This document shows, piece by piece, positions 11,651-13,390 of a stretch of 61,951 bases of DNA. Below the pieces are notes generated by a model, which was not told the DNA's origin, did no database searches, and saw nothing but the letters and a program-made list of their open reading frames with translations. Numbering within the stretch: position 1 is the stretch's first letter; every line of letters begins with the position of its first letter. Origin of the DNA: a virus (taxonomy: Duplodnaviria; Caudoviricetes); the IMG/VR virus record IMGVR_UViG_3300017971_000301, positions 1 to 61,951 of that record. One strand, 5' to 3'. A program made the position numbers and the translations under genes.

Positions 11651-12176
11651 TATGGAAGAAATTCGACACAAAGTTTCTATCTGTTCCAAATGCGGTCAAC
11701 AATACATAGGAAGATCTACTTGTGGAATAGGCTCGGAAAAAAAAGGAGTTGTTTTATTAATCGGGATGAATCCATGGGCTGTAAACGGGACTTTCAAAAA
11801 GGGTAGCGGGATAATTCTCCTTATGAATAAATTCGAAGAATGGGGATTCAAAGACTTCTTCTTCGATAACATTGTCAAGTGTGAAATGCCAGATGGCAAG
11901 CCGCCAAAGAAACGACATGTTCGAAACTGCAAACAATATCTGTATGATCAAATCACTGAACTGTCGCCGATGTATCAGATCATTTTCGGTAAGTTCGCAG
12001 CCAATGCTATGGGTTTCCAATATCTCCCGTGGGTTGAACCAGTAAGATACAAAATCATTACAGTTCCTCATTTTTCGTCCATTCTGTATGGATCCACAAA
12101 TAGGGAAAAAGAGGAATACTACAAACGGCTTCATACCGTTTTGTTCCATACTCCTAAACAAAAGGAAATGTTCTAA
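11643..12176 (+). CDS. uracil-DNA glycosylase superfamily protein (family-4-like)
   Basis: CSKC, LLIGMNP, NIVKC, NCKQYL, IFGKFA, VPHFS. Confidence 0.75.
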   Translation: MSNMEEIRHKVSICSKCGQQYIGRSTCGIGSEKKGVVLLIGMNPWAVNGTFKKGSGIILLMNKFEEWGFKDFFFDNIVKCEMPDGKPPKKRHVRNCKQYLYDQITELSPMYQIIFGKFAANAMGFQYLPWVEPVRYKIITVPHFSSILYGSTNREKEEYYKRLHTVLFHTPKQKEMF

Positions 12177-13390
12177 TGAAAGCAATGGGAATCACCTGTG
12201 GGATTGGATCAATGATGATTGGTGCTCGACAAGCTGGGTTTCAGATTCTCGGTAATATTGAATGGAGACCTTATTATCATGTATCAGACGAAGAGGGCCG
12301 AAACACATTCACTGAGAATTTCCAGAAAGCTTTCATGGTTCATAAACTGGAAGAACTGTCGCCGGTGGATCTAAAAAGAATCAGGGGAGTCGATTTAGCT
12401 ATGGGGCATCCAGAGTGTGGAAACTTTAGCAATCTTCGACCAAGCAAACGATTCAACGATCCAAGTGATATCCCATTGTTCTGTGACTTAGTATCCCAGA
12501 TCCACCCAAGATTCTTCGTACAAGATAACTTACCAAAGGCGCTAATTGGGTTTCCCATTGACAAATGGCATGAAGCTTTACCGGAGTACGACCTATTCCC
12601 TGAGTGGGTGTCAAATTATCATTATGGAAACTCCCAGAAGTTTCGGAAACGATTCTTCATGATTGGTGCTTTGAAGAAGGAAAAGTTCGTGTTTCATTCA
12701 GGAGAATTTAACCATGTGAAACATCTTCGGGATGTGATAAAGGGTCTGCCGCCCCGTCGAGATATTCGGGCTATCAACCATGTTCATGTAAAAGACACAG
12801 ATCAGCTCTACGGCTTCTATCCACACCATTGGCCTGAAACAGAAGGTGAGGAAAGAATCACCCTCGGTGTCTTCAAAAAGGTCATTAAGGATTACCCGCC
12901 GAAACTGAACTTTAGATATCGAAATCGGTTCGGGGAATGGAACCTGAAACCTGGATATTCAAAGATCATCCTGGATAACACATGCCCTGTTATGACTGGC
13001 GGTGGCTCAGCCCTGGACAATCATTATAGAGAAGACACGTTGAATCCCCTGACGCAGCGTGAACGTGCAAGAATACAAGGATGCCCGGATGATTTCATCT
13101 TCTATCCCCTAGATTATATGGAAAGAGGATTCAAGACATATTCTGCGGTTTACAAACAACTCGGCAAATTTATGCCAATCGAGTTTTGTCGGTATATTGC
13201 CGATCAGATCGCCGCTCATATTAAAGGAAAAAAATTCAAATCTATCACAAACGATCGTCTAATAAATCCAAACCAGTATATTGATGATGCTAAACGATGG
13301 TATTGTCAAAATGTTGGTTACAAACCAAAAGCCAGACGAGCCGAGATCTGTGAGGCTTGCTGGTTACCCTGTAAAGGAGAAAATTTATGA
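12176..13390 (+). CDS. divergent DNA cytosine-C5 methyltransferase fold; candidate carboxymethyltransferase
   Basis: Motif I TCGIG, IV GHPECGNFS, VI QDNL, VIII QKFRKRFFMIG, IX LTQRERARIQGCPDDF, X YKQLGKFMP (Asn->Lys). Confidence 0.8.
   Translation: MKAMGITCGIGSMMIGARQAGFQILGNIEWRPYYHVSDEEGRNTFTENFQKAFMVHKLEELSPVDLKRIRGVDLAMGHPECGNFSNLRPSKRFNDPSDIPLFCDLVSQIHPRFFVQDNLPKALIGFPIDKWHEALPEYDLFPEWVSNYHYGNSQKFRKRFFMIGALKKEKFVFHSGEFNHVKHLRDVIKGLPPRRDIRAINHVHVKDTDQLYGFYPHHWPETEGEERITLGVFKKVIKDYPPKLNFRYRNRFGEWNLKPGYSKIILDNTCPVMTGGGSALDNHYREDTLNPLTQRERARIQGCPDDFIFYPLDYMERGFKTYSAVYKQLGKFMPIEFCRYIADQIAAHIKGKKFKSITNDRLINPNQYIDDAKRWYCQNVGYKPKARRAEICEACWLPCKGENL

Follow-up and report, generated by a model that had tools for sequence, protein, structure and literature searches.

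A C5-methyltransferase-fold clade with altered pocket residues in a predicted viral cytosine-replacement module

Introduction

In the published carboxymethyl-cytosine system of Synechococcus phage S-B43 (CmoX/CmoA/CmoY), the C5-methyltransferase-fold enzyme CmoX (PDB 8YF3) replaces the motif X Asn by an Arg that binds the carboxylate (R350), and Ser follows its Cys98 (PMC12783734). The text of Yang et al. (2025, Nat Commun; PMC12783734) describes 4257 CmoA among the contigs of 5615 CmoX, a survey filter of SPPC plus R350, supply of carboxy-SAM (Cx-SAM) to CmoX by E. coli CmoA in vivo, and AsnB-type ligases using ammonia, predicted for a ligase cluster that could not be expressed. A cationic residue has also been engineered into the same motif X position. 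M.MpeI N374K uses carboxy-SAM, as an earlier note on this DNA had stated and the literature confirms, and so does M.MedI N377K, which by the published account still methylates with SAM (>99%), so that Lys alone is no proof of carboxymethyl transfer. On N436K, which the earlier note had placed alongside them, our literature search found nothing for Dcm.

Cytosine can also be replaced at the nucleotide level, as in T4/Xp12-type systems. Beside PolA, these group a TS-fold enzyme that has Asp at N177 with a dNTP pyrophosphohydrolase, a protein of dNMP kinase type and a dCMP deaminase-family protein. A TS(D177)-deaminase-PRA-PH-PolA neighbourhood has been described as typical of C-modified metavirome contigs. 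Here we analyze IMG/VR record IMGVR_UViG_3300017971_000301 (Caudoviricetes; all 61,951 bases, hereafter the window), which has this set of genes and, in contrast to the T4/Xp12-type systems, both a C5-methyltransferase-fold and an AsnB-type member.

A C5-methyltransferase fold with altered pocket residues

The open reading frame at 12176-13390 (+) encodes 404 amino acids. Its start codon overlaps the end of the preceding gene (TAATG), with an AGGA about 10 nt upstream. Its product is a C5-methyltransferase-fold protein: Pfam PF00145 matches residues 2-345 (E 5.8e-22), the AF2 model has a pLDDT of 94.5, and the top Foldseek matches of the model are 3g7u, M.HhaI and M.HaeIII (probability 1.00), with CmoX (8yf3) at rank 12. 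By both sequence and structure the best matches are M.HaeIII and M.HhaI, with which the enzyme shares its fold and the order of its motifs, as well as the catalytic Cys, the arginines of motif VIII and a target-recognition region. The features discussed below are as follows.

12176..13390 (+): C5-methyltransferase-fold enzyme, Lys-type clade, 404 aa (PF00145, AF2, Foldseek)
12416..12421 (+): catalytic Cys81 and Gly82, at the HhaI C81/Q82 positions (profile alignment to HhaI)
12524..12526 (+): Asp117, the motif VI acid, at the HhaI E119 position (profile alignment)
13166..13168 (+): Lys331, codon AAA, at the motif X Asn position (HMMER and profile alignments)
13304..13372 (+): C-terminal Cys cluster C377, C392, C395, C399 (family conservation)

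The motif strings quoted in the earlier note are all present, namely GITCGIGS (motif I), AMGHPECGNFS (motif IV), FFVQDNLPK (motif VI) and VYKQLGKFMPIEF (motif X), as is the C-terminal Cys cluster (YCQN...ICEACWLPC). The note had also read this Lys (Lys331) as the counterpart of the motif X Asn. By sequence and profile alignment it does fall there, on N304 of HhaI: the HMMER alignment to M.HaeIII (query YKQLGKFMPIEF against YKMIGNAVPVNL) and the family profile alignment to M.HhaI (kqtgkfiPvef against YKQFGNSVVINV) agree. In column counts from the best 150 of 522 relatives plus the query, this position is K 97, R 13, Q 2, N 2 and A 1 (n=115). Alignment across these relatives indicates that Lys or Arg at motif X is a family-wide trait and not chance. 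M.MpeI N374K and M.MedI N377K have Lys at the identical position but are point mutants of canonical enzymes, whereas here the whole pocket, together with several further positions, is altered and fixed across a natural family.

Several motif residues are retained. Position 81 is Cys in 116/117 sequences, the residue before it being variable (E 46/116) and not the usual Pro; the motif VI acid is D in 101/117 and E in 16/117, Asp being one carbon shorter than Glu; motif VIII Q-x-R-x-R is present (Q154 116/118, R157 119/120, R159 120/120); and the motif I GxG (93-95/95) and the motif II acid E29 (103/103) are kept. In contrast to M.HaeIII and M.HhaI, the window clade has Lys/Arg for the motif X Asn, Gly for the Gln after the Cys (Gly82, 109/117), D(N/D)L for ENV, an invariant, family-specific Arg two residues past the motif II Glu (Arg31, 102/102) and a near-invariant His before P-x-C (His78, 94/110). 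It alone has the C-terminal Cys-cluster extension (C377 79/85, C392 75/76, C395 64/67; C399 weaker, 13/26), the HhaI and HaeIII alignments stopping near query residue 340. Judged from these columns, the pocket is rebuilt at HhaI Q82 (Gly) and N304 (Lys/Arg) and by Arg31 and His78. We infer that it is shaped for a bulkier anionic group beside C5, carried by either the donor or the target base. Some homologues contain an intein-like insert directly before the catalytic Cys.

Comparison with the carboxymethyl-cytosine system

The earlier note had read the gene as a natural DNA carboxymethyltransferase that would take Cx-SAM made by a host CmoA, place a 5-carboxymethyl group on unsubstituted cytosine and pass it to the AsnB-like enzyme for amidation to 5-carbamoylmethylcytosine. 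We consider this unlikely. Part of the idea stands: the Lys/Arg at motif X and the small residue after the Cys parallel both CmoX (R350; Ser after Cys98) and the engineered N374K/N377K enzymes, and the two systems also share the C5-methyltransferase fold, phage origin and an asparagine-synthetase-family gene close by. A host CmoA could serve as the E. coli enzyme does for CmoX, AsnB-type ligases fit the prediction of Yang et al., and their survey would have missed the window clade because its filter required SPPC plus R350 (PMC12783734).

Descent from CmoX, however, does not stand. The family profile scores M.HaeIII at 5e-29 against 2.6e-10 for CmoX (8YF3), about thirtieth in the list, and phmmer with the window methyltransferase finds no match to 8yf3 at E up to 1. 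Where CmoX has Arg, SPPCS (GSPPCS in SpCmoX) and ENV, the window enzyme has Lys, GHPECG and DNL. CmoA is missing as well. The earlier note had seen no cmoA, and the 61,951-base record indeed contains 0 TIGR00740 matches; CmoA is found in 0/50 related phage records and in 0/15 of those at least 90% complete, in contrast to the 4257 CmoA for 5615 CmoX contigs. As a positive control, the identical search recovers SpCmoA of phage S-B43 at E 2.5e-34. BLAST with SpCmoA gives 0 matches in the window and the 56 methyltransferase loci described below, 0/80 in AsnB loci and 0/41 in TS loci. Profile scores, motifs and the missing CmoA together rule out membership of the CmoX family. The carboxymethyl reading is further disfavored by the adenine-contact positions, which vary in the family (the HhaI F18 position is T in 44/95; the HhaI D60 position lacks conservation).

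Gene neighbourhood

The genes around the methyltransferase, and one distant gene that bears on them, are listed here.

8981..9553 (+): dNMP (thymidylate) kinase-like P-loop protein (phrog_761 thymidylate kinase, E 4e-9)
9516..10907 (+): AsnB-like glutamine amidotransferase / PP-loop synthetase (PF00733 9e-40; GATase_7 2.3e-10)
10885..11304 (+): MazG/dUTPase_2-type dNTP pyrophosphohydrolase (PF08761 7.5e-9; phrog_12184 1e-36)
11643..12176 (+): UDG-superfamily protein (PF03167 2.1e-8)
13387..14094 (+): TS-fold dCMP-type enzyme (PF00303 E 2.6e-13)
14138..14788 (+): dCMP deaminase-family protein (PF00383 5.5e-16); translation probably begins at the ATG near 14282
14671..16587 (+): family A DNA polymerase with 3'-5' exonuclease, PolA (PF00476 3.8e-69)
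57616..58314 (+): ThyX, flavin thymidylate synthase (PF02511 8.5e-48)

This arrangement suggests that the methyltransferase sits in a T4/Xp12-style cytosine-replacement module. We compared 56 methyltransferase loci from IMG/VR, 80 AsnB loci (the best 80 of 444 in IMG/VR) and 41 TS loci, and since these sets share loci and phylogenetic ancestry, their counts are not counts of independent events. In 49/56 methyltransferase loci a TS-fold gene is found no more than 10 kb away, which bears out the pairing with a dCMP-type TS-fold enzyme that the earlier note had pointed to. The seven others are either outgroups (about 26% identity) or contigs that are short or truncated at an edge. The dNMP kinase-like gene occurs in 17/56 methyltransferase loci by BLAST and 27/56 by clustering; a MazG-type gene is present in 37/41 TS loci and a deaminase-family gene in 33/41; and the UDG-superfamily gene occurs in 4/56 and 12/41 of the methyltransferase and TS loci, respectively. 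The TS-fold gene thus appears, from gene order, to be the obligate partner of the methyltransferase, an association that the CmoX cluster as described (PMC12783734) does not have. The TS-fold gene would be dispensable for dTMP because ThyX supplies it. An obligate TS-fold partner would in turn imply that C5 is already occupied, which argues against carboxymethylation of unsubstituted cytosine.

The AsnB-like protein, which begins MCG and has a glutaminase domain, goes together with the TS-fold gene. In the AsnB-family loci a TS-fold gene is present in 61/80, mostly directly adjacent, and the methyltransferase in only 15/80; conversely, AsnB is missing from 22/56 methyltransferase loci, including the Arg-type loci L038, L040, L041, L044, L052 and L056. 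These counts go against the suggestion that AsnB amidates the methyltransferase product, against AsnB as its dedicated partner and against the carboxymethyl scheme as a whole. Instead, co-occurrence points to the AsnB-like enzyme as a partner of the TS-fold dCMP enzyme, with the methyltransferase not feeding it, a contrast to the CmoX system. A literature search on AsnB with dCMP hydroxymethylase in phages found nothing describing such a module.

Aligned with EcThyA, T4 gp42 and PaMx74 ThyA, the TS-fold protein has D at the EcThyA N177 position, keeps D169 and has R at L143, and all 85 distinct associated TS-fold proteins agree at the three positions. The Arg at L143 sets this clade apart from the T4/Xp12-type enzymes. 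The residue does not tell a methyl from a hydroxymethyl product, because the TS homologue of the 5mC phage PaMx74 has Asn there. The best PDB sequence match is 9iqu, a 5hodCMP synthase (hydroxylase); that identity is ruled out because the window enzyme keeps D169 where flavin-type 5hodCMP synthases have Asn according to the published description (PMC13326640), and a literature search on PDB 9IQC, 9IQU and 9IR2 found nothing relevant. Among cultured phages, those of C. perfringens have the nearest relatives (38% identity), with a glycosyltransferase adjoining; a literature search on DNA modification in these phages found nothing.

A module of this kind could also be served by a conventional SAM-dependent m5C methyltransferase whose motifs are atypical, mopping up cytosines that escape an Xp12-type nucleotide-level replacement by 5mC. 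Such an enzyme would explain both why the TS-fold gene is constantly nearby and why CmoA is missing, the neighborhood is of the type seen in C-modified contigs, and Asn-to-Lys variants do keep SAM activity (M.MedI-N377K, >99%). Xp12-type phages are not known to need such a methyltransferase, which counts against this account. In addition, it leaves unexplained the purifying selection for K/R (110/115), Gly82, Arg31 and His78, and over 126 residues the window TS-fold protein shares just 27% identity with PaMx74 ThyA. DHFR was found neither in the window nor in the related records (0/50), whereas PaMx74 has the order frd-cd-thyA, but this is a weak pointer because host DHFR could serve. In favor of 5mC, 5 of 7 tested TS homologues adjoining deaminases made 5mdCMP, as reported in an NEB preprint. 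On balance we give ordinary m5C methylation little probability.

In TS loci that have no methyltransferase, the slot between MazG and TS is occupied by a gene we call family X (10 loci). Foldseek with its model (pLDDT 81.9) returns only TS-fold structures as top matches; hhalign against the TS profile is weak (probability 4.7%), so the TS fold is supported by the fold search. Family X occurs in 0/56 methyltransferase loci and 0/80 AsnB loci (best 80 of 444), and appears from its model to be a second TS-fold paralogue in the methyltransferase's slot. The mutual exclusion of family X and the methyltransferase is seen in roughly 10 contigs, themselves related, and phage lineage rather than function might account for it.

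Family distribution and action on DNA

The methyltransferase family forms 88 clusters in metagenomes (50% identity, E < 1e-30). In 50,697 GenBank phage records it has no member, the protein search returning only canonical methyltransferases at <30% identity, and a DNA search of the window against GenBank phages gave no match; absence from these records is a further point against a CmoX-like carboxymethyltransferase. A literature search for the clade found no describing paper, the CmoX and ligase lists in the supplement of Yang et al. lying outside that search. Scanning genome contigs found eight MAG contigs with the family, one of which (75,335 bases) is identical to an IMG/VR record and another of which carries a frameshifted methyltransferase fragment in a 2.78-Mb alphaproteobacterial contig. 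CmoA above the cut-off was found in none of the four MAGs behind the methyltransferase-family contigs.

The nearest cultured relatives of the window TerL are in phages of Flavobacteriia (41% identity), which weakly suggests such a host. CmoA was above the cut-off in only 5/121 sampled genomes of the phylum of a Saprospirales-labelled MAG; these observations may weigh against a host supply of Cx-SAM.

Of 10 long homologues scanned, 7 have N6/N4 DNA methylase domains fused at the C-terminus, in one locus (L001) an N6/N4 methylase is encoded by a gene of its own next to the enzyme, and tandem methyltransferase paralogues occur in two (L004, L023). These features and the full target-recognition region make a nucleotide-level role unlikely. 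The fusions also resemble orphan phage methylases, as ordinary m5C methylation would predict.

A proposed role in cytosine modification

Because the pocket is rebuilt and cytosine-replacement genes are in constant company, we propose that the methyltransferase probably helps to make an undescribed modified base, outside the published carboxymethyl-cytosine system. We put at even probability the more specific view that it is an active, DNA-directed cytosine-C5 enzyme of an undescribed C5-methyltransferase-fold clade, an optional post-replicative add-on to nucleotide-level cytosine replacement. What the alignments and the model show are the fold, the rebuilt pocket and the retained residues of motifs I, II, IV, VI and VIII. 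In this scheme the module would comprise the TS-fold dCMP enzyme, dNTP pyrophosphohydrolase, dNMP kinase and dCMP deaminase-family protein with the adjoining PolA; the methyltransferase would direct its catalytic Cys to cytosine C5 after replication, as an option, outside any CmoA/CmoX/CmoY-type system and without supplying the AsnB-like enzyme.

The mechanism we favor, tentatively, begins with attack by Cys81 on C6 of a C5-substituted cytosine, perhaps 5-hydroxymethylcytosine, put into DNA by the TS-fold pathway. An anionic partner would be held by Lys331 and Arg31, and the C5 substituent would then be exchanged or extended. In relatives that lack the methyltransferase, the second TS-fold paralogue in its slot may do the matching step on nucleotides. 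In vitro and without cofactor, C5-methyltransferases reportedly derivatize 5hmC and attach aldehydes to C5 (work of the Klimasauskas laboratory). Three observations sit uneasily with this mechanism. The TS product may be 5mC, as the NEB preprint found for most tested homologues, and 5mC offers no handle; a pure substituent-exchange enzyme has no obvious need for a nucleoside cofactor, which the retained motif I Gly loop and motif II acid argue for; and carboxy-SAM use is the sole experimentally proven meaning of Lys/Arg at motif X in the published work.

Slightly more doubtful is the general claim that this is a non-methylating enzyme, whose Cys-C6 chemistry either reworks a pre-installed C5 substituent (for example by swapping the 5hmC hydroxyl) or adds a carboxylate group from a source other than Cx-SAM. 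Methyltransferase-fold acp transferases exist (Tyw2), a precedent for CmoA-free transfer to C5 of another carboxylate-bearing group, be it the 3-amino-3-carboxypropyl of SAM, a carboxy-aldehyde or a folate-borne one-carbon unit. Such a donor would be consistent with a pocket that is enlarged and cationic, with the invariance of Arg31 and with the lack of CmoA, and the TS-fold partner is cationic too, with Arg at the L143 position by the one-carbon site in all 85 sequences. There is no DNA precedent, however, the proposal is one of analogy, and it does not itself account for the obligate TS-fold partner; we regard it as very unlikely. The enzyme might, alternatively, attack unmodified host DNA while the C5-blocked phage DNA is immune.

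If the clade transfers or reworks a non-methyl group, it would be a new way in which enzymes make modified cytosine in the DNA of viruses, with bearing on phage evasion of restriction and CRISPR and a natural scaffold for DNA-labelling tools like those from mutated M.MpeI and M.CviPI. Reworking of a C5 substituent, or transfer of a carboxylate not derived from Cx-SAM, would be a post-replicative cytosine hypermodification without described counterpart. Although widespread in metagenomes, the family is missing from cultured phages and lies outside the filter of the 2025 CmoX survey. The AsnB-type amidotransferase, which has 444 relatives in IMG/VR, is tied to the TS-fold dCMP enzyme, and this points to a separate cytosine pathway that is also undescribed.

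Predicted active site of the window methyltransferase

The window, 61,951 bases long, is an entire viral record from IMG/VR that CheckV estimates to be about 85% complete. Its methyltransferase gene overlaps both neighbours, starting in a TAATG and ending in an ATGA.

12176-13390, + strand, C5-methyltransferase-fold protein, 404 residues
13166-13168, AAA codon of Lys331
13304-13372, C-terminal extension with three well-conserved cysteines (C-x14-C-x2-C) and a variable fourth

The protein matches Pfam PF00145 (E 5.8e-22, residues 2-345) and contains all of the motif strings quoted in the earlier note. 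HMMER pairs its YKQLGKFMPIEF with M.HaeIII YKMIGNAVPVNL, and a 38-sequence family profile alignment pairs the same motif X stretch with M.HhaI YKQFGNSVVINV; by both alignments Lys331 occupies the motif X Asn position (HhaI N304), as the note had claimed. The profile alignment to HhaI also equates GHPECG with GFPCQ, DNL with ENV, and Q..R.R with Q161/R163/R165. An AlphaFold2 model built from the family alignment (mean pLDDT 94.5) best matched 3g7u, M.HhaI, plant MET1 and M.HaeIII in Foldseek.

An exhaustive HMMER search with a cut-off of E 0.001 returned 522 relatives, including 161 at E ≤1e-10 and 88 at E ≤1e-30.

Residue counts at active-site positions (150 best of the 522 relatives, plus the query)
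Window residue; HhaI residue; count
Lys331; N304; K 97, R 13, Q 2, N 2, A 1 of 115
Cys81; C81; C 116/117
Gly82; Q82; G 109/117
Asp117; E119; D 101, E 16 of 117
Gln154, Arg157, Arg159; Q161, R163, R165; 116/118, 119/120, 120/120
Glu29 (motif II acid); E40; E 90, D 13 of 103
Motif I Gly pair; 93/95 and 95/95

Arg31 (invariant, 102/102) and His78 (94/110) are specific to the family. HhaI adenine contacts are not kept: Thr stands at the F18 position in 44 of 95 sequences, and D60 falls in a variable column. The C-terminal extension, which canonical HhaI and HaeIII do not have, includes the conserved Cys377, Cys392 and Cys395 in a cluster that may be a metal site. As judged from these alignments, the catalytic machinery for attacking C6 of a flipped-out cytosine is intact, and the predicted pocket around C5 is rebuilt, larger and cationic.

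Among ten long homologues scanned, seven carry a C-terminal N6/N4 DNA methylase domain and two others an intein-like insert with an endonuclease just ahead of the catalytic Cys; at two loci, tandem paralogues of the Lys-type enzyme occur within one phage (L004:4389-6826 and L023:8689-11465). Fusions, inserts and paralogues argue for a predicted enzyme that is active and DNA-directed. Since Asn-to-Lys variants keep working with SAM, the enzyme could be an ordinary SAM-dependent methylase with a mop-up role, but this leaves the fixed pocket changes unexplained and we consider it unlikely.

Large inserts with homing-endonuclease-like domains directly before the catalytic Cys recur in several homologues, including P0016 and P0017 ('HN' before CGN), just as one would expect of an intein, at an essential catalytic residue; the P0016 insert has a weak intein-splicing match. 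N6/N4 methylases are fused to or adjoin the methyltransferase at other loci (e.g. L001:9120-9995). A 2.78-Mb contig of an alphaproteobacterial MAG holds a frameshifted N-terminal fragment of the family (L145:9893-10770, residues 1-191, 58% identity), which may be a decayed prophage remnant.

Relation to the CmoX system

Phage S-B43 encodes CmoX, a DNA cytosine carboxymethyltransferase that uses only Cx-SAM and has Arg350 at the HhaI N304 position; CmoA provides the Cx-SAM, and CmoY, an AsnB homologue that lacks the glutaminase domain, ligates glycine (Yang et al., Nat Commun 2025, PMC12783734). The survey in that study retained only SPPC + R350 sequences and counted 4257 CmoA against 5615 CmoX contigs (PMC12783734). 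As in the window enzyme, the Cys of CmoX from the S-B43 record (GSPPCSAFS, AENV, VGRMVPP) is followed by a small residue and the motif X Asn position is cationic; the CmoX structure (8yf3) ranked 12th in Foldseek with scores similar to the best matches. We rejected the family as a CmoX subgroup, since phmmer with the window protein did not match 8yf3 at E up to 1 and the family profile scored it at 2.6e-10 versus 5e-29 for M.HaeIII.

A search that detects S-B43 CmoA at E 2.5e-34 found no CmoA in the window, nor in 50 records of related phages, of which 15 are 90% complete or more, bearing out the earlier remark that no cmoA was visible. BLAST with SpCmoA likewise gave no matches in the window, 56 methyltransferase loci, 80 AsnB loci and 41 TS loci. 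The proposal of a natural carboxymethyltransferase is partly supported: the Lys/Arg parallel to CmoX stands, but CmoA and kinship to CmoX by profile scores are missing. Lys/Arg has a direct precedent only under one reading, carboxymethylation of leftover cytosines with host-supplied Cx-SAM, which is nonetheless unlikely: CmoA is missing, and none of 50,697 cultured phage records has a family member. Two further points weaken it, the terminase relatives in Flavobacteriia phages and the scarcity of CmoA in the phylum sampled, which may not be the host's (5 of 121 genomes above its cut-off).

The large terminase (49675-51234, - strand) is closest to Cellulophaga and Croceibacter phages (41% identity) and PolA to a Dinoroseobacter phage (43%); the genome is a mosaic. 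In the literature searched, we found no paper describing the methyltransferase clade or the TS-AsnB pairing. We regard the enzyme as a variant, not previously described in the literature searched, of a known C5-methyltransferase type, with predicted chemistry.

A TS-fold enzyme is the common denominator

We identified 56 IMG/VR loci encoding a methyltransferase relative, with the recurring order kinase-AsnB-MazG-MT-TS-deaminase-PolA.

Neighbours within 10 kb of the methyltransferase gene (n=56)
TS-fold gene; 49
AsnB-like gene; 34
dCMP-deaminase-family gene; 32
MazG-type pyrophosphohydrolase; 21, plus a separate PRA-PH-type cluster of 16
Kinase-like gene; 17, or 27 by clustering

Seven loci lack a TS-fold gene; they are contigs that are short or cut at an edge, or else outgroups with about 26% identity. 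The pairing with a dCMP-type TS-fold enzyme suggested earlier holds. The proposed partnership with the AsnB-like enzyme does not: a search of IMG/VR from the window's AsnB-like protein gave 444 relatives, and the best 80 loci have a TS-fold gene in 61, mostly directly adjacent, versus a methyltransferase in only 15. Arg-type methyltransferase loci lack AsnB. Forty-one loci from the window TS-fold subclade contain MazG (37), deaminase (33), PolA (27), methyltransferase (18) and AsnB (10); the three locus sets overlap in contigs and include related phages, so their counts are not independent. On these counts the TS-fold enzyme is the common denominator, and the methyltransferase and AsnB-like enzyme are independent add-ons.

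These loci encode 85 distinct TS-fold proteins, every one with Asp at EcThyA N177, predicting dCMP specificity, and Arg at the L143 position. They also keep Asp169, so we rejected flavin-type 5-hydroxy-dCMP synthases (cf. PMC13326640). A New England Biolabs preprint reports that TS(D177)-deaminase-PRA-PH-PolA neighbourhoods mark cytosine-modified metavirome contigs and that five of seven TS homologues tested made 5mdCMP (10.1101/2024.12.05.627091). The 5mC phage PaMx74 has a ThyA that shares only 27% identity with the window's TS-fold protein and differs in having Asn at position 143 and an adjoining DHFR; we found no DHFR in the window or 50 related records. The nearest cultured relatives, from C. 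perfringens phages (38% identity), lie in the order kinase-dUTPase-glycosyltransferase-TS-PolA, which would suit a hydroxyl handle. The predicted product may carry a methyl, a hydroxymethyl or another group. The window also encodes ThyX, a thymidylate-kinase-like protein and a nucleotide pyrophosphohydrolase.

The methyltransferase is linked obligately to a pathway predicted to place a substituent at C5 ahead of replication; it shows no tie to CmoA, nor a dedicated one to AsnB. We infer that it would act post-replication on phage DNA and handle an anionic group beside C5. Our favoured, still tentative, reading is that it works on cytosine already substituted at C5 and would exchange or extend the group there, as only this would explain the obligate TS-fold partner. 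Use of another carboxylate-bearing donor seems very unlikely.

Two further genes lie upstream.

9516-10907, AsnB-like enzyme
11643-12176, UDG-superfamily protein between MazG and the methyltransferase

The AsnB-like family (also L061-L139) adjoins the TS-fold dCMP-type gene mostly without a methyltransferase, a pairing that looks like a separate, undescribed cytosine pathway. It keeps the N-terminal Cys and has V-G-E where human asparagine synthetase has N-G-E, at the position of the glutaminase oxyanion-hole Asn. UDG-superfamily relatives occur in 12 of the 41 TS loci, usually between deaminase and PolA; a 2026 NAR paper describes UDG-PolA fusions in phages whose genomes carry modified T.

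An alternative family in the same slot

In ten TS loci without the methyltransferase (L161-L164, L174-L176, L180, L184 and L188, e.g. L188:6618-7463), the gap from MazG to the TS-fold gene is filled by family X, an unannotated protein family with members of about 280 residues and no Pfam or PDB sequence match. Its model (pLDDT 81.9) has TS-fold proteins as top Foldseek matches, HY126 dCMP hydroxylase (E 4.1e-6) followed by T4 dCMP hydroxymethylase and MilA, and its Cys is kept in an invariant H-W-G-G-C-L motif. Family X is absent from all 56 methyltransferase and all 80 AsnB loci, and is mutually exclusive with both in the samples examined. Together, fold, slot and exclusion suggest that two different Cys-nucleophile pyrimidine-C5 enzyme folds, the methyltransferase and the predicted family X, alternate beside the first TS-fold enzyme.
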